From Marsupella aquatica (taxonomy: Eukaryota > Plantae > Marchantiophyta), in assembly GCA_973895155.1 (NCBI GenBank), contig OZ316892.1, forward strand, positions 30,993,802 to 31,057,801: a DNA stretch of 64,000 nt. Reading direction: 5' to 3'. The first letter of the stretch is position 1; the number at the start of each line of letters is the position of its first letter. Made by a program: the position numbers and the translations under genes. Shown here piece after piece: positions 19,810 through 56,448 of the stretch. The notes beneath the pieces were generated by a model. The model searched no databases. It was given only the letters and a program-made list of their open reading frames with translations, and was not told where the DNA came from.

Positions 19810-19997
19810 TGTTAGAATACACTTAACCCTAACTCATAGAGTGATACAAAGGGGTATATAGGGACTAGATATAGAGAGTCATGAGACTAGAGAAGGTAGT
19901 TATAACCATCCAATGTGTAACACCTTATAAGCCACATTGGCTCATGAAAGGATTATCTTTGTGTTGTTGGTGTATGAATTATAACCATCGTCTAACA
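19810..19997 (+). repeat. 5' LTR of Bianca copia
   Basis: Matches 25123-25311 apart from a 1-bp indel. Confidence 0.95.
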
Positions 19998-20168
19998 CGT
20001 TATCAGCACGATTTATGCCCTTCAATCTTCTCGAGCTTATGTTTTTTTTTCCCTCTTTCTCTTTTTGATAACTTCCAATTGTCATCGACAATTCTTCACC
20101 GCCCGCACCCTGATTTACACAGACCACGACCAATTCCCCAGGGCTACTAGACTTCAATTAACCTGACA

Positions 20169-24840: not shown

Positions 24841-25122
24841 TACCTAAATGCCCTCGACTACTCGTTTCAGGCATTATTATTATTACGATCACCCTAAACC
24901 CGTAATACCTGGTAGAATGACATATTACTACTTAGTATATACTTAGTCCCCTCAACTTAACGAACTTATTACATGTAAGACAGTGATACTCTTTTTACCC
25001 CAAAGAAGAAAGCAGGGGGTTTTTAATGAGATCATGTCGTTCATAAGTTCTAATATACCCTGAATTAGGATTAACTCTATTCTATAGAATGGTTACTTTC
25101 TATTGAAGTAACCAAGGGGGAG

Positions 25123-25311
25123 TGTTAGAATACACTTAACCCTAACTCATAGAGTGATACAAAGGGGTATATAGGGACTAGATATAGAGAGTCATGAGAC
25201 TAGGAGAAGGTAGTTATAACCATCCAATGTGTAACACCTTATAAGCCACATTGGCTCATGAAAGGATTATCTTTGTGTTGTTGGTGTATGAATTATAACC
25301 ATCGTCTAACA
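25123..25311 (+). repeat. 3' LTR of Bianca copia
   Basis: Follows the PPT at 25114-25122 and is followed by the TSD CTTCT. Confidence 0.95.
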
Positions 25312-27325: not shown

Positions 27326-29338
27326 TGTAACACACCCCAATTTATTGCAAAATTCATGAGGACTCACTCCTTTTGGTGGAGACTTTGGAGATCCTTTTTA
27401 TGTACCCTTCAATCATGCTTTCCACCAAGTAAGGACTTCCCCCCAAAGGGTGGCAAGCCAAGCAAAGATGGACGGCAAAAGGGCATTAAGGTAAGTATCG
27501 CTCTAACCAAACCCTTAGTAGTTGACAAGGTCCCTATAGGGGATGTTCCTGCCGTAGAGAAGGTGTTGTTGCAAGAGAAAGTACCTAGTAAGGTTAAGAC
27601 AATGGATCCTGATGAAAAGCTGATTTTTGTGAATGTCACTTCTAACGGTAATCTAGGTGTTTCTTTGGTGGATACAGGCGCAACCGCTTGCTTCATAAGT
27701 GGGCAGGCAATGGCACGTCTGGGGTGGATGTGCAAGAATTGCTACAACCGTTAGTGTGCAAGTTGCCAACAACTTTTAAGGGATATTGTCAAGAGTGGTA
27801 CATAGAATTTGGGTAGAGGTCATAGGCGAACAACAAAAATTTGTTAGTCAAGAGATGTTCTACGTTCTAGATAGGCTAGTCGTAGACTTCATTTTGCTGG
27901 TAGGTTATCTTAGAAAACACAATGTTACCTTGAAACCAGGGGATGAGGTGCTCAATTTTCCCAATAAGGGCGATGAGCCCATCGTTGTACACAAAATTAC
28001 AAAAAATAAAGAAAGATTTGTCAAAGTAAAGTGTCGTGGTTGTCTCTGTGTGTATCGGCAAAGCAATGGTGGAAAGATTCAAGGGTGGACATGAAGGTTC
28101 TTCTTTCATCTCCACCTAGTTAAGGTTAAGATTAACCTAGTTAAGGTTCATCAACACCACTGTTGCGCAGCCAAAGGTTAAGTGAGCTAAGATTGGGCCC
28201 GACTACGGTCGAATTCCTGAGATTTTAGAGGAATTCAATGATGTGCTCTCGCAGAAGCTACCTAAAGGTTTACCCCTGCGGAGAGAAGTGGATCACCAAG
28301 TTGAGTTGGAGCCAGGTTCGGCTCCTCAGGCTCAAGCTCCTTATCGTCTGAACCTGAACAAACAATTGATGTTGAAGAACGCCTTGGAAGAGTTGATCAA
28401 CCAAGGCTTCATTCATCCTAGTAAGAGTCCTTATGCGCCCGCGCAATTGTGTCCAAAAAGGGTGGTACTTTGAGATTGTGCACAGGGTATCGGGCCCTCA
28501 ATAAGCAAACAGTAAAGAACAAGTACCCGTTACCTCATATGGATGATCTTTCCAATTGCTTCTCCAGGGCTAAGAAGTTTTCAAAGGTGCACTTGCGGTT
28601 TGGGTATTACCAGATCCGCATGCCTAAGGGAGACAAGTATAAGACCGCGATGCGCAGAAGGTTTGGAGCCTACAAATTTTAGGTTATGCCGTTTGGGTTG
28701 TGTAATGCAACCGCAACGTTCATGAAGATGATGAATACCATCTTTCATGACTAGTTGGTCCAAGGAGTGGTCGTCTTTATTGACGACATCCTAATCTACT
28801 TGAAAACCTTGGAGGACATGAGCAGTTCTAGACATGAGCAAGCCGGACATAAAGCAATTGGTTCTTTGCCACGAGCAAAGTTGTTACTTGTGCTAAAAGA
28901 ACCACATGGTCTATAGGGCAAAAGGAGGACTTTTGCAACCCTTACCAGTATTCGCGGCTCCATGGGAGTCCATCTCCATGGACTTCATTGTGGGGTTATC
29001 TGATTCCCACGGTAGTAACTTCATCTTAACAATCGTGGATCATTTTTCCAAGATGACATATTTCTTGCCGACTACAAATAGTTTCAGCCTAAAAGGTTGT
29101 TAGTCTAGTCTTTGACAATGTCTTTCGACAATGGGATTGCTCTTGCATATCCTGTCCGATTGCGATACCAAGTTCACAGGCCATTTTTGGAAAGCGTTGT
29201 TCTAGTTATCCAAAATAGACCTTACCAAAGGATCAGTGTCTCATCATGAGACGGATGGCCAAATGGAACAAGTGAATGATATCGTGGAGGACTTGTCTCA
29301 CTTTGTGACGGCCAATCAAAAGGATTGGGCAAAGCTTA
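27326..29338 (+). mobile_element. Heavily deleted Ty3/gypsy (chromovirus-like) relic
   Basis: Protease LVDTGATACFI, RT fragments LPLRREVDHQVELEPG, KNKYPLP and FIDDILIY, integrase PWESISMDFIVGL. Many stops and frameshifts. Possible LTR-like start tgtaacacacc. Confidence 0.85.
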
Positions 29339-30670
29339 ATGAAAGTCTGTTCGGGTGATGCGCTGTTGATTAGAAAGAAACACGCTTTAACTGATCTGCC
29401 GACCATGTCCGACCTGGCAGCAAAGGCAAAGTATACGGACAAGCTCAAAGGCGCAATCCTGCGATTCTATCGTGCAAACTATGACGGAATGTTTTCGGCT
29501 GGTGCTCTCTGGACGGACATCATTTGGACGTTTGATTTTACGAATGACGAACTCGATCGCTGTTACGCATTGGTCGATGCCGGATATTTCAGGAGCCTGG
29601 TGAAGGTGTCCGAGAGGGCCGACATGCCGGAGCCTTTGAAAAATAGGCTACGAAATCTGTATCTGAAGAAGTTTGGCGGACATATTTGGTCGAGGATGGA
29701 TCCCTACAGAATTTTCTACACTGGAGATTTTCTCGCTTCGGCCGAGCCGCCGTTCGATTGCGCCAGCTGTAGTGAGAGCATTGTGGCATCCCTTGCGATC
29801 GTGGACTTGACACACACCGGGGGCAATACGTGGACACAATCAGAAATATTGAATTTTCTGAAAATTGTCGTGAATATTCCGGCCAACGAGTCACTGACCC
29901 TCGTCTTTTTTGTGCATCCGAGAATACTTCTAGCACGGATCATTGAGGCGGCGCGAGGTCTCCCCGATAACTATAATGCCCATCTTGAATATGGCACCTA
30001 TTTCAAGAGTACCCTTGAGGTTCTCCCGCGGCAGCACATGAGAGGTGTGGTGGAAACTGTGATCTTTCTCGGCGTTTCCCAAGACAGGGAACCGGATTGG
30101 GAAGTGCATTTCAAGAATTTCACCGGCCATTTCAGCTTCGAAGACGGAGACCAAGTGGAGCTCCGGAAGGCAAGCAAGGAAGAATCGACTGACCGTCCCA
30201 ATGGGGAGATGGCTAGCATCAAACAAGCGGCGATGAAAGTTAGGCTGGAAAATCGGGTTCCGTTCAGATCGCCCAGCGGCCGCTTCTTCACTACCAATAT
30301 CAAGCCCGGCCGAATAATCCGAGCTATAATAGAAGCTTTCTCGAAAAAGGAGGAAATAGTGCTCGATTTCTTTACAGGGGGGCAGGGTCTGAAGCATGCA
30401 CTACTCTTGGAACGCGAGTGCTTCTCATTCTCCTCCGCCAGGGAGGACGTCATGGACCTCACGGCGTATGCCGAGAACATGAAGTCTCTCGACAAGGTGT
30501 CGAGCTTCGCAAAATCATTGTGGAGACCACCGGGCTGCTCCACACAAGATTTGAATGCTAGGGCAGCCAGAGGTCACTATCCTGCGGGTATGCGAATGGA
30601 CAGCGCTGTGGATGAGGGTCTCCAAGGAGACACAGACGTGCCTCAGTCGTGTGATGGGGCAGTCGTGTGA
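29339..30670 (+). CDS. Beta-class DNA amino-methyltransferase-like protein (degenerate motifs, probably 5'-truncated)
   Basis: 443-aa ORF with SLAIVDLT (motif IV-like) and NIKPGRIIRAIIEAFSKKEEIVLDFFTGG..ALLLERECF (motif X/I). Begins at the junction with the gypsy relic. Confidence 0.6.
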   Translation: MKVCSGDALLIRKKHALTDLPTMSDLAAKAKYTDKLKGAILRFYRANYDGMFSAGALWTDIIWTFDFTNDELDRCYALVDAGYFRSLVKVSERADMPEPLKNRLRNLYLKKFGGHIWSRMDPYRIFYTGDFLASAEPPFDCASCSESIVASLAIVDLTHTGGNTWTQSEILNFLKIVVNIPANESLTLVFFVHPRILLARIIEAARGLPDNYNAHLEYGTYFKSTLEVLPRQHMRGVVETVIFLGVSQDREPDWEVHFKNFTGHFSFEDGDQVELRKASKEESTDRPNGEMASIKQAAMKVRLENRVPFRSPSGRFFTTNIKPGRIIRAIIEAFSKKEEIVLDFFTGGQGLKHALLLERECFSFSSAREDVMDLTAYAENMKSLDKVSSFAKSLWRPPGCSTQDLNARAARGHYPAGMRMDSAVDEGLQGDTDVPQSCDGAVV

Positions 30671-30916
30671 TGGGGCAGTAGAGACTCGCAAGTATCGATC
30701 GTCCGCGATAACGATTGTCCGCGATATCATCTTTCCAATAATAGCACCCCAGTTCGGGGTCGAAAGCCCGTCGTCGCGGCTGAAGTTCATCATCCAGGAG
30801 GAATATCTGATAACACTATCGTCGAGCCTGCGATTCAAAGAGGCGCCCGGGTCCAAAAAACTAAATCCATTACTACTGTCAATGAGTCACCAAAAGAAAA
30901 CCCTCCACCGGACCAG

Positions 30917-31603
30917 GTGGCCGACGACGGCGTCATAGACTTTTGCCTGAGCCCTGACTTGGATCAAGACGCTGTTTTAGTCAGCACCGCTAATGGTTGC
31001 ATCATAACCCGGAAAGAAATGAGATGCCTCTCTCCAGGAAAATGGATAACTTCCGAGGTTATCAACACGTATTTCGGTCTCATCAAAGCGATGGAAGAGA
31101 GATCACGGACGAGAGTCTTCAAGTGCCATTTCTTTGATACCTGGTTCTACTCGGTACTCACAAAGAATGGTTATAATTATGCGGCGGTGGAGTCATGGAC
31201 TTCGAAATTGACGTATTTCCTGCTTGATTGTGATCGTATTTTTGTCCCTATTCACGTCCACGGCGGAAGCCATTGGGCGTTGGTCGTCATTGACAACAAC
31301 GAGAAATGCCTAGAGTATCTGGATTCCCTTCACGGTGAAGAGCCGGATGTTCTGAAAAACCTGGCGAAATACATGGACGACGAATTGAGAACCAAAAATC
31401 AGAAGCACATTTGGGCTCGTGAGTGGCCCAGGCACGCACGCAAGGACATTCCTCGCCAAATCGACAGCTACAACTGTGGCGTATTTGTCATGAAATTTGC
31501 TGAGTACCATAGTTTAGACATGGTTTTTGATTTCACGGCTCAGGACATGGATTCCGCTAGGAGAAGAATTGTTGTGAGCCTATTTAGGAAATCGATTGTC
31601 TGA
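30917..31603 (+). CDS. Ulp1/SENP-family SUMO protease (peptidase C48)
   Basis: LSPGKWITSEVINTY, FFDTWFY, IFVPIH..SHWALVVID, YLDSL, PRQIDSYNCGVFV; the His-Asp-Cys triad is intact. The frame is open back to 30671 and is the same frame as the upstream MTase-like ORF. Confidence 0.93.
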   Translation: MADDGVIDFCLSPDLDQDAVLVSTANGCIITRKEMRCLSPGKWITSEVINTYFGLIKAMEERSRTRVFKCHFFDTWFYSVLTKNGYNYAAVESWTSKLTYFLLDCDRIFVPIHVHGGSHWALVVIDNNEKCLEYLDSLHGEEPDVLKNLAKYMDDELRTKNQKHIWAREWPRHARKDIPRQIDSYNCGVFVMKFAEYHSLDMVFDFTAQDMDSARRRIVVSLFRKSIV

Positions 31604-32660
31604 ATATTGATGTAGACTTTGACAGTTCGAGTTTTGGGAATCATAGTACATTGTGTGGCTTGGATTTGTTCTATGGACCACTCTCTGCCTACAAAAAAGG
31701 CTTCCAAGCTCTAGATTCAATGGATGGACAATTGCAATGGGCACAACCTGACACCAGGTACCATTGCAGCTTTGCAATAAATTATGACAGAGATCGGGTA
31801 TCTACAGCAAATTCAACTTACCTTTGCCAACCCCTATGATTCATTTGTTATTTCAAAGATCAATGATGCCTTGCAACACGTAATTACGGTAGGGAGTAAT
31901 TATGATGTGTGTATATGTATTATGTATAGAAAGACCAGGTAGGAAGGACGGTGGTCGACGGCAGAACACCACCTGAAGTACCCTGTATTATGATGGCAAG
32001 AGGCGGGGTGACAGTCGTTGTCCGGCTCGAAGGAAGAATCTGTGTCCGATCCCATTCATGCTGAAACTTGGACCAGGCGGCCGGGTGATTGGCGGCGTAA
32101 TCATGATCCACTCAAGCTTGGAGGCATAAGGGACAGCCGGGCCCTCCTCCCAGTCCCATTCGTCACTTGGCAACATCAGTGAGAAGGCTGGAGCTCCCAC
32201 CCGTAATTGTGATGATCCGCCCTTGTTTCCCCCTTTCCGGTGAAGGAATTATGTATTGGGGAAGCTGCCGAGATTGCATACTCACTTCGACCGACAGTCA
32301 AGTCGTGCCCACTCAAAGGATATCAACGTACTAGCGATTTAGGGTGTTCCTCGTTCTCGCCGGGATTGCCTCCGCCTCAACATTGGACAGACGGAGGGAC
32401 TTTGCTCGGAACATAATAGGTGCGACTCAATCCACAGCTGCGACAATAATAATAATAGCACGTTTTGGGGCTGCAGTTGGCCGAGCAAGCCAGGTACATT
32501 GCGCATTGCAACGACTCCTTTAACCTTCACCGAGCTACCACGGAGAGTGTCCTCTGTGACCATATCGTTTACGTGGCTCGGCTGTTTTGCGAGATAGTTG
32601 TCTCCGTCTGTGTCAACAACAAGTACACTTCCGAGCGGTTCATCGGTTGGTTGTTTTTAG

Positions 32661-33449
32661 ATGGAGATAAGTGTTTGGCAGTTTGGTGAGGGACTTGATC
32701 GCTCTCGGCCAGACACCACTTTCATCACGCACCTGTTTGAGTTGTACCAGTGGGCGAGGGCGAAGGTAGTTATCACAAGAACAGCGGAGCGGCAGCAGGT
32801 TCGTCATCCGACGCATATACTAGCCATTCCTGCAGAAGGCTCATATCGGGAAGAAGGCGGCACAATCGTGGCTTTGGAGGCCGGCCAAAAGCGGAATGGA
32901 CAAGCCGCGCCTGTGCACCTACCTTTGGTGGTCAAGTTACATATCTATCGGATGGAGGAGAACCTTCACATGAACATTCGCCGGGCCAACCATACCAGGT
33001 ACCTGCAGACACACGCATTCGAACGGCTGGTATCCCTACCTTGGAGTGCCAGCCGGTACGAACGGGAGAGCCTGGTGGAGTTTGTGGCTAGCTTTAGCCG
33101 CGGACGAGAAGCCACTGTTGTCCGGGGCCAGACTCTGTCACTGAGTCAAGAGCGGCTACAGATGATTTTTGGGCACGATAATTGTGTTAGTCCAAACGTG
33201 TGGCCGAGTGTGCATCGGGTACGCGTTGTTCGTGTCCAGTCATGCCACGTGTGCCGGCTTCATGGTAAAATTACTTTTTTATATCGCTCTCACAATACAG
33301 ATATATTTAAGGCTCTACACGAGAGTCGCGCAGTACACGGAGAGCGAAGCGTGGAAACAGACTCCCAACACCGCCAAATCCCGTCGTCTACAAGCAAATG
33401 GGGGCACGTATTCCAAAAGGCCATGAGGCGTTTTTTAATTAATTTATAA
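32661..33449 (+). pseudogene. Truncated Transposase_32/ATHILA-ORF1/PMD-like TE accessory protein
   Basis: FERLVSLPW..SLVEFVASF..VVRGQTLSLSQERLQMIFG aligns by eye with ORFs 39079-41247 and 45870-49259. Similarity stops near 33180. Confidence 0.5.
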
Positions 33450-35576
33450 ATTGAATGGGCTCTAGCTTTGGCTCTACTACTGCTACTAGGGTGTCTCAAA
33501 CTTCAAGGGTATGGACAAGGTTTGACTGGCAAAAAGGTTTCCCGAAACTGTCGGGCATGCAGAAAGCAAAGGGGGGGAGGCAAGGAAATCCCTAAACACT
33601 AAACCCTAAACCCTTGCTCCGGCTATGCTCTTTCGCTGAATGCAGAGCTTTTTCAAAAGACAGCAAGGATGGCACATCTTACTTCTTCCGAATTGTGTGA
33701 ATGTCTCCAGTTGCTGAATTTCTAATCCCACCGTGGATAGATCAGATCAGGGGAGGAAAAATGCAAGAAGCCCCGAAGGCCAGCCGAACATGGCAGAGGT
33801 GTACATGGAGAAGTTAGCTAAGAAGAACGTATTTCGGCAGCAGATGATTTAAACTCGCGATAGATGGAAAGCGAATGAAGGGACGCGCACGAAGCATTGA
33901 CAAAGGACAACAGGGTGAGGGATAGTGAGGGATAGGGTACAGAGAAGGCACGAGGAAAAGAGGGCCAGAATTGATCTGGAGACCCAATTGACATTGCTGA
34001 GAGCTCAACAGTCAACAGCAATACTGACTGAACTGATCCGTTCGAGCAGGACACCTGAGGAATCGCTTACGTATATGTAGGTCCTGCCTATCTGCAATAG
34101 GATAGATAGCCTCCTTACGAGTAGCAATAGTAGACACTTCTGCTGTGATCACTCTGCATTCCATGGAGATGCTGAACCCACACGAACCTGTAAATGTCTG
34201 TTTTGAAGCAAATTTTGAGTAACGGTTTGCACTGTGCTTCGTGTCCTCCTCAAATTCTGAGTGTGTTCCCCACACTGCCCCCATTGAATGTTAATCATGG
34301 CCCAATAAGGTTCAAGGCAACCCAAGGCATTCGGGAAAAAAATTAATGTTCCGGCATTTCCGTCAATGCACAACTACAAAACCTCCTGGCCATAAAACAT
34401 TTACTAAGGCAATCATCTGAACGAAGCCGGACTAACATTCACACAAAACCACGACCCCTAGGTGTACTCAAACCCCAGTAAACCCTAAACCCAGTAAACC
34501 CCAAACCCCATTCACAAAAAAAAAACAATTCAGAAGTTTCAGAAATAATTCCGGAGAGTTACAAATGGCTGGCCACTGCAAGTTTAGAATTCCGTAATTT
34601 AGAATGCTCAAAGATCGCCACAATGGGAATTGAGGTTTAGGGGTTACCCCACAGAGTTGTAAGTTGAAGTGCTAGCTCTTATCTATTCCATGGAATGCAA
34701 AATGCCCATTTCTACAACAAAGCTGCAAGAAACGCTACTTTGGAAAAGCTGGATTGCAGCAAAATTTAATCTGCGAATGCAAAGAAAGTCATCCCACTTC
34801 ATGACCAGCACCTGTGTCGATGGCCATGTCTCCTGATGTTGGCTAGTAATTCCAGATACCCCAAGAAGAAATTATCAGTGACAAAGTCATTGCTATCAAT
34901 CACCCACAATGGGAATCGAGTTCCTCCATTCGGGAATATGCCCAAATTTCTCCCAAGCTGAAATGTCGCCAATGGGTGCAGTACTTTGAAGACAAGTACT
35001 GCATGTGGTGGTCAAGCAATGAACTTGACCTGTCGATGAAGTGTGTGGTTCACTGCAAGTACCAGCATGTCACTGCTCAGTCGAGTACCGGAAGCGTCCA
35101 GGTCGTCGATTGAATGTGAGGGCATGGTCCATGACCCTCACAAGCAAGGCATTACCTGCAGTCACTATGCCCCTTCTAGACATCCTACAGACACGGCACT
35201 GTGCCACACCAAGTGTTGAAATCCTCTTTGTCATGTACCATGTACCATGTCTGCTCTCTCGAATGCACAAACTACATGAGGTAAAGCCCGGTACCCGATG
35301 TTACTGTTTACATCTGTGCAGAACTTCCAAAGAGGTCATTTCCTTAAAGGCAGGCATTCCTGAAAAATGGGAAAGGCAAACATTTCATTTCATTGTCCGC
35401 CGCCTATATTGATCACAGACCCCCTGCACATTGACTGAGTATCTACTCTTTCCCCATTGTAGCATTCCCCATGGGCAAAAGGACGTTTTGGTAAGGGAAG
35501 CAAAGAACCATCAATAAGACCAACACAGCCAGGGATTAATCTGTGGCCTGATTCTACAAGCAGCAACTTTTACAGT

Positions 35577-38500
35577 TCAAGTGATATTGCGAGTGCCACG
35601 GCCAACTGACTCCAAAGCCCGTCGGTGCTTAGCGAGACTGGCGAAATATGTACTCAATATCTCTCGAACACCGCCGTCAGATTGTGTACTAGGTCTGAAT
35701 GCGGCCCCACCTCCTTCGTAGAGCTGTTGAGCCATGTTACGCTTCATATCCTGCAGTCAAAAGAGTGGGACAATAAGGTAGAGAGTTTGAAGGGTTTAGG
35801 GTTTCAGCAAACTATGTATACAAGCTAGCATATTGTTGAAGAAAACCGGTACGTACCTGCAGCTCCAAAACCGACTCCTCAACCGAGTCCTCTAGAACGA
35901 TTCGTGTCACGTACACTTTTTTCTTCTGTCCTATTCGATGTGCTCGACCAACGGCCTGGTCTTCCATTGCTGGATTCCACCAAGAGTCCAGGAAAAAAAC
36001 ATGATTGGCGTATTCGATGTTCAACCCAACACCTTCGGAAAGCAAGGACATCAGAATGACACTCACCTGCATGGCAAAGAAACATGTAAGAAACAGGCCG
36101 GTCAATTGAGTTGGTTCGATAGTTAATTTGAACTACCCTAAACCCTGAAGTACGGTGGTGTACTTGCCCTACGTACGCACCTCCGGGCGCGTCCTGAACT
36201 CCTCCATCACCACGGCACGCCCCGGTGGCCCCATGGACCCATCAAACCTCCTGTACTGGATGCCAGCTTTCTCCAGGTGTGGCTGTAACAGGTCCAAAGC
36301 AGACGTCCATTGGGAAAATACTATACTCTTCTCTTTCTGTTCGTTCTGTTCCGTTTTGTGACTAGGAACATCTGATAGGAGTCGTAGCAGACAATCAAAC
36401 TTCGACGAGGATGGGGTGTTTGCCGCGAAACTTGATATTCGGGTAACACCCCTCTTTCTCGGCTTCTTTGTACCGGCCATGGGGGTCTTCAATTCGTCGT
36501 ATATATACAACTCCTTGGAGTTAATGACTTTCGTACAATGTACCGCAGGGCAATTGCAGCCCTTGTCCATGTAAGTGCCACAATGACCACAAAAAACATG
36601 ACCGCAGTAGGAAACTCGCGTTTGTGCCACCGTTGCCGACCCCTACCCATGATTCACCAAGTCAGAACTGTCCATGCATTTACGGCTACAAATAAAGAAA
36701 AAAAAACTATTTCGGGTTCAATGTTTCAAAAAGCAAGTTGTGTACCTTGCACAAAGCACACGGAGTTTGAAAACTGACTGCAGAAAGGATTTGTAACAAC
36801 GTATCACGTTTGTTGTCTGGCAGCATTGTTTTTCCTTCTAGTGCAGCTTTTTCCGCCAAGTACTGGTCATGAAATCCTGGCAGCGAAGGATGTACTGCCA
36901 TTTGCCTTAGGCGAAGAATGCGAGCCAAAAAGTGTTGGACGTTCCAGCTTCCATTTTCCCGATATGCCTGCAACAAAAGGAACGGTGGAGAGATAGCACA
37001 ACAACTTTCAAAACCTTGAAACGTACGCATGCAATAACACCACAACATAAGGCGCCTTAAGTCAGCCTCTGAACTAAGCGAGAGTCGTGCAGAGCAAGGA
37101 GAGGTGCCTATAATCAGTCACTGAACTAAGCCGAGAGTCGTGCAGAGCAAAGGAACAGAAGATCGACAAAAGAGCATAGGAGGATAATTTACACACCTAT
37201 CACATCTTGTAAAGAAAATTAGTCCACTACAAAGGTAAAGATTGTAATGCTAACATCTGAACGAATGTAGTAAATTGAAGTCCTCGGCAAAACCGTCTGC
37301 CGGCATATGGGTTCAGGGTTCACGGTTTCATTTGCAATCACACCAGCTTTGACTTGCTTTAGTGCAACGAGTAAGTAATTGGGCATAGGAAGCTGAAGGA
37401 AGGGGCTTAAACCTTCCAATCGTCTTTAGAACTCTGCACCAGGTTTTCGTACGCAGCGTGCTCTGCTGGGGTCGTGAAGCCGACCTCAACTACCTGTGCG
37501 CTCAGGGGGGGCAAATCTAGTTTATCTGCTGACAGTCACATTTTGGTGTAAAGTTCCATTATGCATGCAAATCGAGTGACACAAGTTCCATTACGCATGC
37601 AAATCGAGTGACACAATATTGGATTACAAGCCCTGCTCGAGCTGACAACAAAGATAATGACTTGGCACATCACATCACCCATTGGAACGCAACAACTTAT
37701 GCAAATCCATATCGTAGTCTGCATCCGGGAGACATGGTTTACGGTAGAAAGCAGTATTGATTGACAAGTATGGGAAGGTTCATACCCTTTGTCCTCCTGA
37801 GGGCAATGCGGGCCAAGTGCTCGGAGATGGACTTCCTTGCCGGCTTGTCACCATCATCAGCCTTTTTAGCCAGAGATTGGAAATCCTCCTTCTGACTAAG
37901 AGGTATATACCTGAGGAACCTAAAGTAGGAATAGAGATCCATGTGGGAATTGTGCACAGGTGTGTCGCTCACACACCATCTGTTCCGACTTCGCAGGGTG
38001 TAGCACGCTTTGGAACCAATGCTTTCCGCATTCCGAATTTGATGGCATTCGTCCAGGACTACTCGGAACCATGGCGGAGAAGCAAAGAGTGGATTTCTGT
38101 CCTTTGGACGGATGAATCCACCACCGTCACTAGTAATCTGTGATTCCTGTGTCACCATCCCGTACGTCGTAAGGACTACGTCATGGTTTTGTATGGATGC
38201 AATATCTTTGGTCCTTGATTTCCCGTGGTAAACCAGCACAGACAATTTTGCTTTCTCTGTCGTCCGTGTCTGTATCTCTGTTTCCCATTGCTTGAGAATA
38301 CTCGTGGGGCAAACTATCAAAGTCCCACAGAATTTCTTCGTCCGAGGCCGGCGATTTGTCACTATCAGTTGTAGGATCTCGATTGTCTTGCCCATGCCCT
38401 GCAGGCCAATGGTTCGGACATCGAGTTAGCAGGCACTGACATCTGATCGGAATTCATGTTGCCATGTGGTCATTGAATTGCGAATGTATGAACGTACCAT

Positions 38501-38990
38501 GTCATCCGCTAATATCCCCCCAAATGGACAATCGGTTCCTGACTCCTTGTAAGTCATCCACGCTAGAGCTTGCCGTTGATGCGGAGGAGTGTGAACTGTC
38601 ATGGTATCCTCGGGAGGTTGCTTGTTCGCAGTCAGGTCCCTCCCATCGATGTGCTTCTGGCAAAATGGGTAAATGTTGCTTGGCCTCAAAAAATTCAACG
38701 TAATGCCTCGAACCCAAACATGTCACACACACACGCAACTTCGACACAAACAGCACAATCAAATAATCAATCATTTGTAATTTGATTCTATATCCACGAG
38801 TTCTTTGCCACATTCGGCTGAAGTAGTCACCTTCCCATTGTAATCGGGATTATCTGGCCATTTTATGTCATACTGCATCTCCGGCTCCGATGAATCATCC
38901 AATGCACCATCCGATGAACCATCCGACGAACCATCGTTGTCGGCGGAGGTTAAATCCACAATCAGAATTTTAGCTGCAGCACGGGGAACC
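35577..38990 (-). CDS. RAD5/RAD16/Uls1-like SNF2 ATPase with embedded RING finger and upstream SIM, multi-exon
   Basis: HQRQALAWM, GGILADDM|GMGKT, TLIVCP, VVLDECH, LRRTK, LRLRQMAVHP, RING CALC..CGHVFCGHC..CP, SIVFSQWT, FDGSM, GVGLN, WWNPAMEDQAVGRAHRIGQ. GT-AG introns; stop at 35577. Motif III reads SDTP instead of SGTP. Confidence 0.9.
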
Positions 38991-39078
38991 TGAGTAGATG
39001 CCTGTCTACGATGTGGCATGCTTTGAGTCACACTTCCTTCTAAGGGGTTGGCTGGAGACCGGGTGGGTTCGCCGCCGC

Positions 39079-41247
39079 CTAAACACATCGTCGACCCCAG
39101 TACGCGTGGTGCGAATTGAACAGATGCGGGTCGAGTACTTCCATAGTTGGCGGATGGAGACCCACACGGGCCTGCAACATGCACCAACCTTCTCCTCCTC
39201 CTTGGGGGGCGCGTACTTCTTCTTCTCTTTCTTCTACCCTCTTCCGAAGTGGTGATTGCCCGCTCCCGACCACTCCACAATTCTCTACGTCATAGTCAGC
39301 TCGTGCCACGTAAGAGTCACTTTGAATTCTGGCAGTGTAGAGCCCCGTAGTCCGGGTCAATTCACTTTGATGATGATCTACCTGCCCCGTCGGTATAATG
39401 CAAGTGTCATCGACCTCCATTCCTTCCACAATTGATATTGCCGGACTAGAATCGACAATTGGCCCTGCTACACTTGCCTCAAAAACTTCATCTCCTGGAC
39501 AGGCCTCCTCCTGAATTGGCTCTTGTGCACTACTTTCCACCATTGCTTCGAGGGCCCTACTAAATTGTTGCGTTAAGGCTTTGGTCGAGGGTCCCTTTTT
39601 CGTGGCCACACTTATCTCCGGTGTCTCGGCCGACAACTGTAGTTCTTCGGGTCCTCCCGGTATACCATCATCAGCCGCATTCGACCTCAATGGTAGGAAA
39701 TCGGGTTCTGGTTCACGATTTCTGTCAGTCCTGTGCGAGGCCACGCGCGGGTCCTCGGGACTGTCATGAAACACAGCAGTTTCATGAAGCTCCATGGTGC
39801 ATTCCAACGACTGAGCTACGACATGTGCGTTTTGCGCAGAACATTGCAAAGTTGCATCCGGCGCCTTATTAAATCGGGCCTCGGTCGAGGCTCCGGTCGT
39901 CCAGTGTGCATCTGTTCTGTGTGAGGCCACGCGCGGGTCCTCGGGACTGTCATGGAACACGGCAGTTTCATTCAGCATCAAGTTGCATTCCGCGAGCACA
40001 TGTCCGACATTGCTTTGCAAATCCACAATCATTCTTTGTTGCTCCTTCAATTTGAAAGCAAACACTCCACTGCATTCGTGAATTTGTTTTATTTGATCAT
40101 AGACAACTCGCATGCAGTCTGGCATCCTGCTGCCCATTGACTGTGAACTGGCCGTCGGATCGTAGTGAATGTTTTGCGTGGTATGCTCAGATCTTTCCCC
40201 ACACAAACGTCCGTCTGAATGCTCATCGTCATGGGACGTCCCGGTCTCCACATGCTTCCACACATCGCCCTCCGTGTCGCTCTGGCCCCGCCTCTCTGCT
40301 TCACTAGCACTCTGCCTACTGCGCGTCTCACTTTCGTTTGCACTCCTGGGTTTTTGAAGTAGATCCCTCATGGAATACCCACTGTGAAGGAGCAATCGCG
40401 TTACAGCCGTGCCACAGTAACAGGGATACCATTTCATTCTCGGAAGCTTATCATCTGACAAATGCTTCCTCAACGCCACTATCTCACCCTTCAAGCAGTC
40501 CCACACAAAATGAGCCCAGTCTGGCTTCAAAGTTGGACATTCAACATCCTGGGCCCGAACCTCTTCCGGGATTGTACTCCACCAGGAAGCCCAGTACACC
40601 CACATGTCCTTCCCGGTTACCTGGGTGGGCTTTGTTTTCCCAAGAAGTAGCTTGTTTACAACCTTCACAGGCTCCTGCCAACGCCTGAACACATCCGATA
40701 GGGTATCCAAACTCCAAGGGTTTGTGTGGTTACGAGGCACATTAAACATGGCATCCAGTTTCTCGGAAGCCCATGAATTTCGAAAATGTCCAAATTGCCC
40801 ATTGGGCAGATGGAATGCAGCTCGCACTGTTTCCTTGTCAAATTTCAGCAATGCACCCCGGAACATGCAGCTGTCGATGTCTGGGTCAAATGCTTGGACA
40901 AATTCGGTAACTCCAGCAATCGCCACCTGCGGCCATTCCAACTGAAATGCCTCGACCAGATTTCCTGCCACCAACAAATCGTGCGTTCCAGGCTCACATT
41001 GCAGGCTGGAACGTATTTTCCTTGGAGTCATTGATTTCCATATGGTGCGGGTGACCCCTGCAAAAAGATTGCCAGTTCTTTCAAAAATGGCTCCAACCCA
41101 GTGTACATAACTCATAAAGTACAAAACACAGGCGACGCACTCATCCTCTGGCCCGAGCTCGACATTTGATCCTGGCGTCGAGGCAGTCATCCCTCCACGA
41201 TGATGGTCGACTCCCTGCTTGACAACGTCGATGGTCCCTCGACACAC
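39079..41247 (-). CDS. 722-aa Transposase_32/ATHILA-ORF1/PMD-like protein with coiled coil and acidic tail
   Basis: FQLEWP..VTEFVQAF..FRGALLKFDKETVRAAFHLP and PDWAHFVWDCLKGEI..CGTAVTRLL. Internal duplication of ETAVFHDSPEDPRVASHRTD. Confidence 0.6.
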   Translation of the reverse strand: MCRGTIDVVKQGVDHHRGGMTASTPGSNVELGPEDECVACVLYFMSYVHWVGAIFERTGNLFAGVTRTIWKSMTPRKIRSSLQCEPGTHDLLVAGNLVEAFQLEWPQVAIAGVTEFVQAFDPDIDSCMFRGALLKFDKETVRAAFHLPNGQFGHFRNSWASEKLDAMFNVPRNHTNPWSLDTLSDVFRRWQEPVKVVNKLLLGKTKPTQVTGKDMWVYWASWWSTIPEEVRAQDVECPTLKPDWAHFVWDCLKGEIVALRKHLSDDKLPRMKWYPCYCGTAVTRLLLHSGYSMRDLLQKPRSANESETRSRQSASEAERRGQSDTEGDVWKHVETGTSHDDEHSDGRLCGERSEHTTQNIHYDPTASSQSMGSRMPDCMRVVYDQIKQIHECSGVFAFKLKEQQRMIVDLQSNVGHVLAECNLMLNETAVFHDSPEDPRVASHRTDAHWTTGASTEARFNKAPDATLQCSAQNAHVVAQSLECTMELHETAVFHDSPEDPRVASHRTDRNREPEPDFLPLRSNAADDGIPGGPEELQLSAETPEISVATKKGPSTKALTQQFSRALEAMVESSAQEPIQEEACPGDEVFEASVAGPIVDSSPAISIVEGMEVDDTCIIPTGQVDHHQSELTRTTGLYTARIQSDSYVARADYDVENCGVVGSGQSPLRKRVEEREEEVRAPQGGGEGWCMLQARVGLHPPTMEVLDPHLFNSHHAYWGRRCV

Positions 41248-41384
41248 CCCTCCTCAGTCCACAGCGTTCATCATCTGCACAAGGTGGTGAATCGATCGCC
41301 TCACGGCACCCCAGCCCTAAAGTACCCCAAACATCCAAGCAAAAATACCCTCGGTATCGACTCCTGGCTGCGGCAAATCTCAAC

Positions 41385-41445
41385 ACCAAAATACCCCAAT
41401 CATCAAAGCCAAAATACCCCAATCATCAAAGCCAAAGTACCCCTA
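41385..41445. repeat. 23-bp tandem repeat
   Basis: caaaataccccaatcatcaaagc, ~2.5 copies. Confidence 0.8.
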
Positions 41446-44400
41446 ACCTCAACTCCCGTCTCCGGCCAATGTCAGAACCCCAATTAATACCGAAAGGCAA
41501 GATACCGTCAATCGAAAATGATGGCCTCGTGGCTCCTGCCCATGCGAAAGCCGAAAAACCCAAACATCATCTCTTATGTCTCTTAATTACTAGCCCTATG
41601 CCTATGCTCGTGCGTTGCACGAAAGATGTCAAGGAGAGAAAAGATGTCGATGTGAGACAAAGATGGCAATATGAGAAAAACTTTACATGTCAAGGTGAAA
41701 AAAAGATGTGAAGGTGAGAAAAGGTCTTGAGGAGAGAAAATATGTCGAGGACAGTAAAGATTTTGAGGGTGAGAACAAATTGCCGTGGTGAGATAAAGAT
41801 CTCAAGGTAAGAAAAAGATGGGGAGAAGAGAAAAAGATGTGTGGAGGGTGGAGGCACAGTTGGGTGAGCCAAGGTGTATTGGGAATGCAATTAGAAGGGT
41901 GGGGATGAGGGGATTAACGGGTTTTTGGGGTATATCAAACTTTATTGTGAAGAGTGTTTTGTTTGGAGCTTGGTCTCAAAATTGTTTTTTTTGGAGCTTG
42001 ATCTCATTGGCCTTCATCGGAAAAGTCTTCCTTAAATGGTTGGAAGTTTAATATTGGAATAGCAAAAACTGGGATCTCTAATAAAGATCAAACAAATAAA
42101 AATAAGAATGAACCCAACAATCGTAAAAATGGTATGACATGCAATCTGGTGACACAGAAAAGAATGAACAATCCCTGCCTCAACAAAGAGGGGAAACAAT
42201 ATCATATAGTACCCCGAAGGGGAGGCAGTAAAACAAACCACCACTTGGCCAGCAAGAGGCCAGCGGTGGAACAAGGCGTGGAACAAGGCGCTGCAACTGA
42301 ACGATCATGCTAAGATCAAAACAGGAGTCAGAGCAGGAGAACATCCCGCCAAACTAAACTCTGATGTGATAGCTGTACTAAACAAACTCTGATGTGATAG
42401 CAGTCAGCCGATGGAAAAGAACAGGTGTCAAGTGACTCCTGACAAATGGTCTGTCAAATTGGATATAGGGGTTGATGTTGTTGAGAAAATGCTCAATGTT
42501 GTTCGGGAGGGCGACGGCCCGGGAGGGCAGGCCGGAGCGCAAGAGAGACAATGGTTTCTGGGGATGTGCTATGAGGTTTATGTGCTATGCGCGTCAACAA
42601 AAAAATTTATCTATCCAAAAATCTGTCATTGCACAAAATATGGGTATTGATATGTTGTAGACAAAGACAAACACTTGAGGGTGCAAGGTGCAAATAGGTT
42701 AGAGAGAATGAGGCACTTAATGCTAGAGCTTTGGCAAAACTTTGCCAAGATTGGCTTAGAATTTATTTATGGCAATAAATAAATTTTAACCTAGCCATTT
42801 TTTCATTACATCAAAGCTCCCTTTCTAAACATTGTTACATTTCCCAACATTATCTACTGTTGTTTTTTTCTTTTTATTCCCCTCTCTCCTCTCTTCCCCT
42901 CAAGGGCCCTCCTTCCCCTGCGCACTACCACTATCCATTCCTCTCTTGGGAAGGGTAATAACCGTAATATGTTAAAGTCTTCTGTACCTCATTGCACACT
43001 ATACAATCATCTGACATGTAAATACACTCTAGTACCTACACCCGGGCAGGGTAGGGCAGGAAATTACAATGACTCTGACATACTGTGGAGTAACTATAGT
43101 CAGGACCTAAATACTACCGTTGGTGTATTTATTCAACGCAGTCCAAACTGGACAGCCAAGGGAGGCAGGGCAAGTACTTTTGGTTTGATCCAAGGGTGAG
43201 AATAATTTGTGATTATAATGGATGGTCAGAATTTACTCCCGCCCTTTTTGCTTTCCATAAGCAGACGATCACCAAATTGTGGCGGGATTGCATACTATAG
43301 TTGTAGATTTGCCTGCACGACACGGAGACGGGAGCCGCAACAACACTGCCAACTGCACAAGGTACACGTATAGACTGAGGCTGCGCCGTCACGACTGCTC
43401 CAAACCGTTTCGTAGAAAGGACAATCGCCGATTCATCACGACATACCTCCATAATTAAGGTGGGATTACACTACCGATTGGAACAGTACGGCCTGGCGGG
43501 AGGCCCAGGAATGTGAGTATGCCACGTGGAACACTGGTCAATAAATAACAGATAATAATAATAATAATATTGAAGACCCATCAACCGCCGCCGCTTTGGA
43601 ACATTCCATTTGTAATTTTGTAGTCTGAACTCTGAAGTGCTCGATGATCAAAAGTATAATGACGCCGGAGGCAGGGAAGCGGAAGAGGAAAACCGGTGCA
43701 TGAGCACGTCATTCGATCATTCAAACTTCGAATTGTTTTTGATTGAAACACCGTTTTTGTTATGGGAAGAAGCGGCGGTAGCATGTGAAAGATTGAGTGT
43801 TTTAGAGAAGCAGATGGAAGAAATTCGAATGGCGAAGGAAGCGCTCCAACAACAGTTGGATAATCTATGTATTGCTTCCCAGTTCTTCAGAGGGGAAGAT
43901 CCGATACTCAGAACAAGAGCCATTGATGGAGTGAGCATATCATATATTATAGTCCAAGATCCGGCAGCCGAAGATCCTCAAGGAGATTTTGAAAGTACAT
44001 TCGCCGAACACGAGTTGGAGGTCGTGTATCTTTCTAATGTCTTTGCAGGAGAGTCAAACACACGGCAATTCTCAGCCACCCGGATGCCTTGTCTCATATT
44101 AACAGCTAGAATATCCGTCTGATTTCATTCACCCCTTGTGTGTCTTCCCTCCACGGCTAGTACGGAAATTACTTATGGTATTGGCATGCAGCTCACCGCT
44201 ACATCCCCAGCGCACATCGCAAACATAGCGTTTTTGCTAAGCTTTTTGCCACTCCCTACATGTTTGTTGCGGTTTTTTGGGCTGGACGACTTTTGCTGCC
44301 AATACCACAAGCATCCACGCATCTGGAGGACGTAAGGACGCGGCTGCGATCGGTGCCTTCTGCAAAAACAAACGGTCCTGTCCGAGACATGGATTGGATC

Positions 44401-44518
44401 TACACAACCTGTTGTGGATTGGAGGCCTCGGTTTTTTCTCTGCTGCACCTACGGCGAGGAGGTTTTGAGTGACATCCTGGCAATCCCTTCCACGCCCACA
44501 ACGTCACGCTTGGACTCT

Positions 44519-45496
44519 ATGGCAAGCAGTCAATCTCACGGGACACCACGGAATACATCAAACAATCCTGCGGCACCGGCAAAAAATGTAGTAGGGACGC
44601 CCGCTCCTAACACGCAACCATGCATAGAAAGGTGGATTTCTACTGCAGCCATACCTACTGTCCCGACATCGGAAGTTGTCTACATTCCGCCTGACATTTT
44701 ACAACTCGGCATTAAGAAGGTGTTCGGTAACAAGGTGGTGGTCGGCTTCGAATCTGAATTTCACTCCAGGCTGGCCCGGGAGTGGATTTCGGCCTTCAAC
44801 CAAGAAAACGAAAACAAGTTGGCACTGCACGACGAACTGGCACATGCCTTGTTTGTTGTCCAATTTGACACTAATGCAGGTGACCACATCAAGAAAAGTT
44901 TCCTCCACGCTTCCCCTTTGAAAGCTCTTGATCGGTTTGCTGTTGTGAACGACTACACGCCGAATTTCCAACCCTGCAATTCACCAGATTTCAGACACCT
45001 GGTCACGGTCTACATCAAAAATGGCAACCCTGAGATTTATGAATACATAAAATTCGTGGTGGCCCCAATCGGGCGGTTCATCCGGGCAAAGCAGGCGCCT
45101 GGCATTGAACAACACCACATCTCAGCAGTGGTTGAGACCTCTCTGAAGGTTTTCCCAGCATATGGAAAAATTCAACTCAGCAGTTCCGGCATTACTACTG
45201 TCATCTTCGACTACATTGGCAGGAATCTTCGTTGTTGTTTCTGCTTTTCCTACCGGCACTTTGCATCCAAGTGCACACAGCCTCAACCTGCTTACTTTAA
45301 GGGCCGACATTTCCAATTCAACGCCCCGGGGGACGCAGCTCGACACCCAATTGCACCAGACAATACGAACCAACAAAAGGTGAGATTGGACCAGGTGGTC
45401 TTCCACGACTACCAGGAGAAGGAGCGCAAGGCAAGGGAGGATCGAGCTGAAGAGCAACAGCAGTGGGAGAATTCGGAACTGCAACACCTTGCGCAC
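44519..45496 (+). mobile_element. L1-type LINE ORF1 (DUF4283-like + CX2CX4HX4C), interrupted by a gypsy insertion
   Basis: ALFVVQF..SFLHASPL..VNDYTPNFQP followed by FDY..RCCFCFSYRHFASKC. The ORF ends 12 nt into the LTR starting at 45497. Confidence 0.75.
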
Positions 45497-48400
45497 TGTG
45501 ATGCCTAGACAGGAATCACTCGGCCGGTTAAGTGGGTAAAGCAGGAAGGCACCCTAGGAACACCTTAGTATAGTGACAAAACAAGGAAAATATAAACAAT
45601 TAGGGGCAACCATGGAACCCGGGCAGAGGCCGGAGGTAAGGCTGAGGGTGAAAACCCGATTAGGGTTAGGGCGCGTTAAGCGTCGGCGGCTAGGAAGGAT
45701 CAACGGGAAGAAGGACCGGCAAAGGAGAGGGGTAAGGAGCGCTTGCAGGAAATAGTGGCTCATTTGCGAGCACGAACTAGGCAGACGACTACGGGAGGCC
45801 AACTACTGTCAGCTGCTTAGGCAAGCACTCGGGGAGAGAGTAGATACCGACGATCAACCTAAGGAGGGTATGAGCAACGTCAATCAAGCGGCACATTTCT
45901 GGGGATGCCTGTTCGAACGGGCAACTGAGTACATCAAGACTTACGAGGACGAGGAGTCAGAAAGGGCAGCTCGAGAACGGCAGGAGCTCGCTCGATTGTG
46001 GGAGCTGCAGAAGACGGCTTTCTTAGGAGGCGAACTCATCAAGGACGAGTTCCTGTGGACGCCTACTTCCAATCAACTCGACGATCTTCTGTTTTGCAAA
46101 GACAGCGTCGTCGGCATCCGAGAGGCCATCAAGAACTGCAATGACATACACTGGGAATTAAAGGGTAGCACGGAAAGGTGGACCCAGGCAACGGTGCTAG
46201 GAGAAACCTCCACGGCAGCAGAGATGAAGAGGAAGGGAGCCATCAACGATGAAGCCACCCCGGCAAAAAGAACGAGGTCGACGGCACCAAAGAAGCCAGC
46301 CGAGCAGCAGAGCAGGAGGCAGGGAGAAGCCGAAGAGGAGGAGGTCGATCCCATCAAGGCCATTCCAACCAGGGATGACACCTGGAAGGGTTGGGCGGCA
46401 ACCCTACCGGTGGAGGTGCAACTACATTTTGCACGGGAGGAGGATGCATGCTTTACGGCCATGCGGACCAAGAAGTACCAAGGCTTCATGGCCGGATCCG
46501 GCTTGGAGGCCTTTGTAAGATTACCATGGCTGAAGCCGGAGGTACCGGAGTCAGACCTATTAGAATTCGTGGGGTCATGGGAACCCGAGACCAATTGCAC
46601 GAGGATATATGGGAAGGATTTCTATCTTACTCCCAAGGTGATTGCCGAAGTGTTTGGCTTGCCGATGGGCAATAAGACCAAAGTTGATACCAGGAAGACC
46701 TTGCCTGACAAGGAGTTCCGGTCGTTCCCCGGGCCATCAACGAAGAATGGCTTCTTCCGGAACACCTGCACCAACCCGCACATAGGAGAGATGATCGACT
46801 TCTTGCGGGTGACCATGCATTGTAACTTGCCGAGGGCAGAGATCGGCAAGGCACAGGTCTATCTGGCAGAAAGGCCAGACCCAAGCCGGGACTACAACGG
46901 GTACCTCCTCAACCAATTGAAGAAGATCTTAAAGGAGGAGCAGCAGGTAATCGGCATGGGGAGCGTGTCGCGGCTTGGCTATCACATGCCGCTGTTGTGC
47001 CGGTATGCCAGAGGTCAGACTTTTGCCCCGGTACTTCCCCTGCAGGTAAGGGCACCCGAGGAAGCTCCAACGCCGAGGCCGTTGGCTGAGAAGCCTCAAC
47101 CACCTGTTAGTCCTACGATCGAGCAGGTGTTTAGGCCCAGGAAGGAAGACTTGCCGATGCAGCAACCAGGCATGCAGAGTCTGCTGAAACTACTGGAGAA
47201 AGAAAAGAAATCGGCATCGGCAACAACAACGGCAACGGCAACAATGCAGGACACTACTACAGAGGTAGGCCGACACCGGCTCACAAGAGAAAACCCCTTT
47301 GCTGGAGACAAGGAGAGAATCAGGCCGGAATCCAAGCCAGGTGTTCGAATGTACGTGGGAACCTCAAGCTCCGAATTTGAGGCAGAATTGCCTGAAGCTC
47401 CTACCGAGGAAGAGGAGAGGGAGAAGCTGGAAATCCAAGAGGTAGAGGAGGCAGTGGAGGACTGCAGCCATGATAATTCCGGCTATGGGTCGGACCATCA
47501 CGTTCCAGGAGTAAGGACCTGTGGCCGGTTTGTCCCCACACTTCCAAGGGTAGTGCGAGGGGACCCCAACCAGCAGAGTAGCCCTGAGTCTCCCCCACCA
47601 GATGTTGCTCCCCCGAGCTTCGACGGCATAAAACAGACGGTGCAGGAATTTCAGGAGCGAATCAAGCAGGAGGAAGAGGCCGCCCTGGCTAAGGAAAAGG
47701 ATTTACCAGGAGGAGATTGGCCGGAGGACATCAGGCGGCTAGCCGAAAAAGGAAGCAAACCTCTAGCCACGATTGAAGAGATCCGCAGGACGGCTTGGGA
47801 GCAGAGGCCACGATGGGCGATGCCGATCACTTCTACTTACTCCACCTACGCTAAGAATAGAGCCATGGAGTATGGTGAGATGTGTGGGGAACTTGCGCTC
47901 GGCATCTTTGGAGAGGAGTTGGAGGTAGGACCCTTTTTCCATAGGGAGCAGTTGGAGAAGCACCAATTAGAAGAAGCGGTGGCTTTAGAGAGAAGCAAGA
48001 AGGACGAGGTCATTCGGCGGCTTAGGAGGATGGAAGCCGAGATTGAAGATCTAAGGGCGGCCAAGAAAGCCCAAGATGAACTGCGGATTAAACGACATGA
48101 GCTGAACATCATGCAGGGGCAGTTGGACGCCGCACAGGCTGATAATCAGAATATCAAGGATAAACTGACTCAGACGCAGGAAGAATTGGCCGACACGATC
48201 AAAGAAAGGGAAAAGTGGAAGCAAGAGCTGAAGAATACAGAGGAGGCCCACATAACAACCAACAGCCGGGCCATGGCGGAGACCCAAAGAAAGGAATGGG
48301 CGTTGAAAGGGGAGCTCGAGAAAATCCACGGAGCCCTTGAGCAGAAGGAGGTCGAGTTAGGGAAATCCTATCAAGGGATTATGGCGCTGCAGCAGGAGCT

Positions 48401-50180: not shown

Positions 50181-50184
50181 TTTT

Positions 50185-50203
50185 TGGCGCTAGATGGAGG
50201 GGG
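50185..50203 (+). promoter_or_regulatory. Primer-binding site of the gypsy element
   Basis: TGGCGC-initiated segment after CA+tttt, 65 nt before the gag ATG. Confidence 0.75.
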
Positions 50204-50249
50204 CATTTCTTAAGCCGTGAGATATGAAGTTAGAACGGAAGCGTAGGTA

Positions 50250-56200: not shown

Positions 56201-56448
56201 CCGGTGATCTTGTGCTACTTTATGACAGTAGGTATAGTAGGTTTCCAGGAAAGCTTTACACTCGCTGGTTAGGACCCTTTAGAGTAACCATGATATTCCC
56301 CAATGGCTCCGTGCAATTGGCCAACATTACGGGAGAGGTATATCCAGTTCGCATCCATCATGACCGCCTCAAGAAATACTATATGGACGAAGATGAAGTT
56401 GTTCGCGAGGACGCTTCACAATTAAGTGGGGAGCTATGTGATGCCTAG
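50250..56448 (+). pseudogene. Gypsy gag-pol with two frameshifts and one premature stop
   Basis: Gag FHGRGDEDPDEWL; three CCHC knuckles; PR IDGGSG..LLIGRPWL; RT DYRKLN..FIDDF; RH; TAG at 54988; INT WGIDYIGP..SDRGTHF..GPF. Confidence 0.92.

Follow-up and report, generated by a model that had tools for sequence, protein, structure and literature searches.

The locus described here lies within a 64,000-nucleotide stretch (hereafter the window) of contig OZ316892.1 (GenBank assembly GCA_973895155.1) of the liverwort Marsupella aquatica. It consists of a group of genes, referred to as the cassette, with predicted links to chromatin and SUMO (Table 1). On the plus strand, an open reading frame (ORF) resembling beta-class amino-methyltransferases (MTases) is followed by a Ulp1/SENP-type SUMO protease ORF and by ORF262; facing these, ORF724 and a gene of the SNF2-RING-Helicase_C architecture precede a decayed PIF/Harbinger transposase. 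The window is eukaryotic and rich in transposable elements (TEs), with copia, gypsy, LINE-like and DNA-transposon remains past a host gene, and TE relics flank the cassette on both sides, as a preliminary description of the sequence had stated. That description took the genes for the cargo of a mobile element, for which their multiple copies, their divergence and a transposase relic speak, while element termini and deep contigs bridging the two halves are missing. The cassette is a partly damaged copy of genes that occur several times, and on this balance these may travel as cargo within a single large element of the DNA transposon type and loosen the silencing of its own chromatin, a reading on which our judgment is evenly poised. 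It draws on the domains encoded, the divergence from host orthologues, related contigs and deletion junctions, and the Harbinger relic inside the cassette.

The MTase-like ORF matches Pfam N6_N4_Mtase with an E value of 4e-4, under the curated cut-off, and its assignment is carried by structure. An alignment-based model (pLDDT 78) superimposes on CcrM with a VIA-align Z of 17.4 (rmsd 3.4, 215 aligned), the circularly permuted amino-MTase fold being present; Z was 16.5 to M.BceJIV and 15.0 to rotifer N4CMT (PDB 8s9n), with unrelated folds below 6, and Foldseek agrees (M.PvuII, E 4e-8). By this model the ORF has a beta-class amino-MTase fold, and to that extent the preliminary assignment stands, but the catalytic PPY is gone. 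The putative motif I, near the C-terminus, reads DFFTGG and aligns to DFFAGSG of M.RsrI with a one-residue gap. D-L-T-H occupies the place where the catalytic DPPY/SPPY motif IV should lie, a position deduced from strand order rather than from the residue-level alignment, which aligned motif I only, and a search of the ORF for (D/S/N)PP(Y/F) found none. In the motif IV column, covered by 20 of 25 rows, the D is kept in 20 of 20 and PP in 0 of 20, the family reading D-[FL]-x-R/H. Judged by these residues, the family is most likely a pseudo-enzyme and not an active methyltransferase; no description of a PPY-less beta-MTase family was found in the literature searched. Relatives (n=42) came from an HMMER search, a word-based protein search having found none. 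Among 30 of them that were looked up, three carried a species name, Calypogeia fissa (two) and Riccia sorocarpa (one), all liverworts. Several relatives end in a different conserved domain, and one, P0093, has a long N-terminal extension (residues ~60-260) that we take by eye to be ParB/sulfiredoxin-like, which Pfam and PDB searches did not confirm. Metagenome scans returned one true family relative, on a 1.8-kb contig with no neighbors, and six bacterial-type methylase matches.

Evidence on copies was drawn from the contigs of four public DNA runs (X1 to X4) from two organisms, A and B, with X1 and X3 belonging to one study. The X1 (organism A) baseline is a median of 33 from 10 low-depth values, and that of X4 (organism B) is 18. 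Homology of the MTase-like ORF begins at 29315-29336, which corresponds to residue 71-91 of full-length relatives and residue 335 of the longest, so that the N-terminal 70-90+ residues are gone; this start coincides exactly with the break of the decayed gypsy integrase. A deep X1 contig aligns from 29335, and its 717 further upstream letters do not fit the stretch compared. Since the contig continues upstream and the homology starts in mid-protein, the gene has been cut at its 5' end.

The location directly after a plus-strand gypsy integrase also suggests that the segment could be the long pol-to-3' long terminal repeat (LTR) region of a giant gypsy element carrying sense and antisense extra genes, in which antisense introns survive. 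The plus-strand ORFs are intronless and the intron-bearing SNF2 gene is antisense, and Retand elements have antisense ORFs in that region (PMC11963269). However, the junction truncates the integrase as well as the MTase gene, the deep MTase contig runs upstream into other sequence, the gypsy relic reaches a depth of ~20,000 in X1, about 20 times that of the cassette, and no LTR pair bracketing the cassette was found. We regard a giant gypsy as very improbable.

The Ulp1 ORF, which the preliminary description called an intact protease, has His, Asp, Gln and Cys residues that align with those of SENP2, leaving the catalytic triad and the oxyanion Gln intact. It is a C48-type SUMO protease domain by sequence, and SUMO cleavage is its predicted activity. 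Intactness applies to the domain rather than to the gene: the first Met is at residue 116, within the catalytic domain, and the ORF is therefore not an intact stand-alone gene. The only stop between the MTase and Ulp1 frames is held by a 16-bp tandem duplication, and an X2 contig spanning this stop is longer by 21 letters, a difference that keeps the relation of the two frames. The MTase and Ulp1 likely formed one fused gene. Identity of the Ulp1 ORF to ESD4-type proteases is 39-45%, while these share 65-89% among themselves; with this low identity and no introns, the ORF is, by its sequence features, not the host ESD4/ULP1 orthologue.

The SNF2 frame is open for 804 codons across eight exons, with splice sites predicted from sequence and homology. 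It encodes GMGKT, DECH, a motif III variant (S-D-T-P vs S-G-T-P in homologues, D for G), a C3HC4 RING between the two ATPase lobes, and QAVGRAHRIGQ (motif VI). The convergent ATPase had been likened to RAD5 and Uls1; the SNF2, RING and Helicase_C parts are all present, whereas the best matches are CHR27/28 and not RAD5. Among the best 120 of 585 matches all were CHR27/28-type or unnamed, none with HIRAN. Yeast Uls1/Ris1 has the same domain order. The gene is 33-37% identical to CHR27/28 over the core; the two liverwort CHR28 proteins compared are 60% identical to each other and ~50% like those of flowering plants. A phylogeny against host proteins had been proposed for both enzymes, and both proved divergent, but in a quick tree of 21 rows, containing no plant RAD5, RAD16 or TTF2 rows, the SNF2 protein formed a very long branch without placement. 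On these identities it is not a conserved host orthologue. The ILIVDLT string with its acidic run, which we take to belong to the SUMO-interacting motif (SIM) class, is present as had been described; it is weak alone because the MTase, too, has IVDLT, in what is predicted to be one of its core strands.

ORF724 overlaps the first SNF2 exon in a frame shifted by one. Relative to the window, an X1 contig spanning 39124-39702 holds one extra letter, and if this fell in 168 of the 579 places, ORF724 and SNF2 exon 1 would share a frame. A single-sequence fold of ORF724 was uninformative (pLDDT 37). The repeats upstream of it are a possible subterminal or promoter region. The preliminary description saw two Transposase_32/PMD-like ORFs here, but Pfam scans of ORF262, ORF724 and the gypsy accessory ORF gave no match even at E 10, those models included. 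The likeness found is to the extra ORF of an intact gypsy element (45.5-56.8 kb), with E values of 2e-8 and 0.008 for the two ORFs.

The same description saw no transposase within the segment, yet a decayed one follows the SNF2 stop immediately on its 3' side, in the same orientation. Direct Pfam scans of this relic gave no match. A Harbinger profile was built from a motif scan of 31 loci, of which six Harbinger-like ones were kept and five scanned, all DDE_Tnp_4. Used in a frameshift-aware manner on both strands of the window, it scored 61.6 at 35412, the next score being 36.0 and 60 shuffles giving 23 +/- 3. By this score the relic is a PIF/Harbinger transposase remnant. An X4 contig has 33 extra letters at 35300 that read a YILG-type motif, residues ahead of the second catalytic Asp, and a less decayed Harbinger copy therefore exists. 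Terminal inverted repeats (TIRs) and a TAA/TTA 3-bp target duplication were sought around the relic and not found, the copy being truncated so that its ends may be lost. No Pfam match to a Myb/SANT gene appeared in 15 stop-masked frames nearby, where decay could hide one. Separately, eukaryote-type Harbinger transposases were seen on short contigs of prokaryotic metagenome-assembled genomes (L011, L018, L026, L028 and L036), probably as contamination.

Table 1. Features of the cassette and its borders (window coordinates)
Feature	Position	Strand	Remarks
Decayed gypsy relic (protease, reverse transcriptase and integrase pieces)	27254-29335	+	Integrase breaks off where the MTase-like gene begins
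Beta-class amino-MTase-like ORF	29336-30670 (ORF 29309-30670)	+	5'-truncated; identified by Pfam, fold and relatives
16-bp tandem duplication	30644-30679	+	Holds the only stop between MTase and Ulp1 frames
Ulp1/SENP (C48) protease ORF	30671-31603	+	Intronless; Peptidase_C48 E 1.6e-37; same frame as MTase ORF
ORF262	32661-33449	+	Domain related to gypsy accessory ORF at 46404-46658; low copy
PIF/Harbinger (DDE_Tnp_4-type) transposase relic	35030-35569	-	Stops and frameshifts; scored part 35391-35536, rest by eye
SNF2-RING-Helicase_C gene, CHR27/28-like	35577-39289	-	Convergent to MTase/Ulp1; 8 exons, 7 GT-AG introns
SNF2 exons	39289-38831, 38656-38498, 38398-37786, 37528-37413, 36967-36746, 36642-36181, 36066-35857, 35750-35577	-	
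SIM-like ILIVDLT, then acidic run	38948-38968	-	In first SNF2 exon
ORF724	39079-41253	-	N-terminal domain related to gypsy accessory ORF, then 81-bp-repeat part, probably disordered
23-bp and 18-bp tandem repeats and AG-rich high-depth repeat	41319-41835	.	Upstream of ORF724

In X1, contigs over the MTase had depths of 1015-1025 (~31 times baseline) and the Ulp1 contig 965 (~29 times). A contig joining 30547 to 30992, from MTase to Ulp1, had a depth of 1023 (~31 times; side 97), and pieces joined exon to exon from SNF2 into ORF724 (35878 to 40130) had 1308 (~40 times). X3 was likewise deep there, and X4 showed ~3-12 times baseline over MTase, Ulp1, SNF2 and ORF724. Deletion junctions were found at 34302-40871 (X1, side 101), 36277-40066 (all four runs, short side 28), 32059-33286 (X1) and 31939-37484 (X4), showing other copies to share the layout with internal losses, like non-autonomous DNA elements. 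With several copies, these junctions, and identities of 39-45% for Ulp1 and at most 37% for SNF2, the genes are not single-copy host orthologues, and a repeat or mobile origin is highly probable. The deep contigs are just 80-86% like the window and come from one study (X1, X3), as they would if they derived from another organism, a virus or an episome and the window locus were merely a low-copy duplicated region. They nevertheless share plant-type SNF2 intron positions, with joints at intron sites, the MTase family has no member in viral scans (IMG/VR), and organism B still shows low-copy multiplicity and deletions, so that we give a foreign source hardly any credence.

Several observations weigh against a single cargo-bearing element. 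Summed contig depth is not copy number and may include other organisms. The co-occurrence in multiple copies that the preliminary description proposed to check was seen for MTase with Ulp1 and for SNF2 with ORF724, but the two halves are joined only by low-depth deletion junctions. No contig spanning both halves is among the listed joints (15 of 37), and among these joints SNF2 is reached from the Ulp1 side just once, by an X4 contig whose depth is that of a single copy. ORF262 has an X1 depth of only 38, at baseline, also at 80% likeness, and the Harbinger relic reaches only 200-340, with no contigs at ~1000-1300; the abundant family is thus not the window's whole arrangement. The MTase/Ulp1 and SNF2 depths are themselves unequal (~30 vs ~40 times baseline), the pieces that align to the deep contig include neither the SIM nor the RING, and decay has gone much further in the Harbinger relic than in its neighbors. 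A C48 domain was found in 0 of the 42 MTase relatives. Shared termini and target duplications had been proposed as a check, and no cassette termini, TIR or target duplication was found in the window.

Much of this would also be expected if two or three unrelated repeats (one with MTase and Ulp1, one with ORF724 and SNF2, and a small Harbinger) had been stacked by nested insertion and deletion and the composite duplicated a few times. Depths relative to baseline of ~30 for MTase/Ulp1, 40 for SNF2 and 1 for ORF262, halves unbridged by any deep contig among the listed joints, a window that is a TE nest and a Harbinger relic older than its neighbors all fit such a history. Low-depth junctions, however, connect both sides in other copies and in both organisms, the two depths are of similar magnitude in organism A and are low for either half in organism B, CpG is better retained in both halves than in the surrounding TEs, and no Harbinger empty-site junction is among the listed joints (15 of 37 plus one further table). 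We consider stacking, the main rival, rather unlikely, and lean slightly toward both halves belonging to one element.

The CpG observed/expected ratio, codon-controlled at codon boundaries, was 1.01 for MTase, Ulp1 and ORF262 together, compared with 0.59 for six retrotransposon ORFs, 0.73 for other TE ORFs and 0.65 for the host IleRS exons. Undepleted CpG in the plus-strand ORFs is consistent with a lineage spared CG methylation for a long time; recent capture or transfer from unmethylated DNA would explain it too. The ratio of 0.80 for SNF2 and ORF724, a mild depletion (z -3.1), is a point against the proposed element. Without selection, about one quarter of coding differences are synonymous. 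The 8 synonymous sites among the 31 best-supported listed coding differences, three of which precede the first Met of ORF724, are near this neutral quarter. With its truncated 5' end, its stop, a probable frameshift and the altered motif III, this copy looks to be decaying. Long stop-free ORFs could, on the other hand, reflect selection by the host, a further point against the element. Another alternative is a host ampliconic cluster of lineage-specific chromatin genes, amplified segmentally or in tandem (e.g., on a sex chromosome) with no transposition machinery of its own. It would account for long contigs at a single high depth, which imply near-identical, array-like copies, for the introns and open frame retained by SNF2, for the termini not found and for high depth in organism A only. 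The likeness of the accessory ORFs to a gypsy accessory ORF, the embedded transposase relic, a second MTase-like gene of the window that adjoins a DDE transposase relic, and the neutral look of the listed coding differences argue otherwise, and such a cluster seems improbable.

If the cassette is the cargo of one element, a mechanism can be proposed by analogy with the Ulp1-bearing VANC and the Plavaka accessory genes, on which fusion, targeting, mobility and function are all modeled. The MTase-fold protein would bind DNA without methylating it, would be made with Ulp1 as one polypeptide and, as a DNA reader, would bring the protease to the element, where SUMO would be stripped from nearby silencing proteins. 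ORF724 and the SIM-SNF2-RING protein would together act as a captured motor of the CHR27/28 type, binding proteins that bear SUMO, displacing them or attaching ubiquitin to them, and shifting nucleosomes. The element would have been a cut-and-paste one, for whose transposase the Harbinger gene is the leading candidate, although it is doubtful that this gene is the element's own; the anti-silencing role, argued from these analogies, is put forward tentatively. The fullest version appears unlikely: a giant (at least 14 kb) liverwort DNA transposon, possibly PIF/Harbinger, recently active in ~30-40 copies and carrying a whole SUMO-based anti-silencing kit, in which a dead beta-methyltransferase DNA reader would be fused to a SUMO protease, a captured CHR27/28 remodeler would act as an element-targeted SIM-SNF2-RING ligase and the element's own CpGs would be kept unmethylated.

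Chromatin-enzyme cargo in DNA transposons is already known. The giant Plavaka (EnSpm/CACTA) of Bostrychia is, like the cassette, a large DNA element with chromatin-type cargo; its PAG1-3 genes include PF01555 methylase-like and ParB-like ones, and cargo moves among TE superfamilies (bioRxiv 10.1101/2025.02.11.637652). In PAG2 the partner of PF01555 is SET, and PAG3 encodes a 2OG oxygenase, whereas the cassette, compared with PAG2 by description, pairs a PPY-less PF01555-like protein with Ulp1 and has a SNF2-RING gene; no Pfam match to Plavaka transposase, SET or 2OG genes occurred in the scanned ORFs and frames of the window. The VANDAL/VANC and KAONASHI (KIU) elements, which are Mutator-like, share a TE-borne Ulp1 joined to a probable DNA-binding protein, a working model of sequence-specific anti-silencing and tandem motifs in non-coding parts (PMC13317346, PMC13547354). 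VANDAL/VANC alone is stated to bind and demethylate its own sequence (bioRxiv 10.1101/2025.02.11.637652), and the role of TE-borne Ulp1 is called unknown (PMC13317346). The cassette differs in its liverwort host, in being known from sequence alone and in lacking a MuDR transposase and a VANC/PMD match, no MuDR or PMD Pfam match being found in the 24 ORFs scanned or in trimmed domains. HarbingerS (SET) and PHISTA (TET/JBP) Harbingers place a transposase beside chromatin-enzyme genes, as here (PMC12730594), but the cassette has other cargo and a much larger span, no Myb/SANT gene, TIR or target duplication was found, and its transposase may be a passenger.

Single components also have described counterparts. 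Arabidopsis CHR27/CHR28, the best sequence matches, have the same SNF2-RING-Helicase_C order and are required for TE silencing (PMC4260354). These host proteins promote silencing, and the cassette protein differs from them in its low identity, very long branch, motif III variant and multi-copy state. MpDN4MT1 of Marchantia, also of a liverwort host, and rotifer N4CMT share the eukaryotic beta-class fold and carry (T)SPPY, TSPPY in Marchantia DN4MT1 (bioRxiv 10.1101/2021.02.12.428880; PDB 8s9n), in contrast to the PP-less cassette family. No paper on the combination of Ulp1, methylase fold and SNF2-RING was found in the literature searched, and a term search of a giant-transposon review found Ulp1 and SNF2 unmentioned.

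The remainder of the window begins with the host isoleucyl-tRNA synthetase gene (IleRS), which has introns and, read from its translation, spans ~1-6 kb. Between it and the TE nest lie an RNase H ORF (6909-7262, -) and a 512-aa Pkinase_fungal (CRN-like) kinase ORF (7444-8982, -). A heavily decayed DDE transposase relic (17400-26595, -), with FSESY, WSDGAASQFK and HGKG motifs, is split by a copia element (19810-25312) whose LTRs are almost identical and whose 5-bp target duplication reads CTTCT. Neither Pfam nor a motif search gave a match that would place the DDE relic in a superfamily. It was considered as part of the cassette and rejected because it is more decayed and CpG-poor (0.3-0.4), despite an X1 depth of its 5' region similar to that of the cassette (29 times baseline). 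Downstream of it on the same strand, a second PF01555-like gene (12064-13816, -; E 2e-7) is possibly another TE-borne methylase-like gene; close kinship to the cassette MTase was rejected (hhalign probability 0.7%). A 175-bp module, 71% alike at 9801-9957 and 13781-13952, stands upstream of two minus-strand genes. Its 14-bp core recurs inverted at 41281-41294, upstream of ORF724, a post hoc pick for which chance is possible. A GAGGACT-type repeat array (16905-17290) follows the DDE relic. On the far side of the cassette, a young gypsy (45497-56797, +), whose 361-bp LTRs are identical and which has an extra ORF of 1167 aa ahead of gag, sits within a LINE-like ORF1 (44336-45505), and an 18-bp array has 10 copies at 58245-58424.

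If the cassette is what we propose, the union of Ulp1, a methylase-fold protein and a captured host silencing remodeler would open the part that SUMO plays in the arms race with TEs to testing in a seed-free plant.

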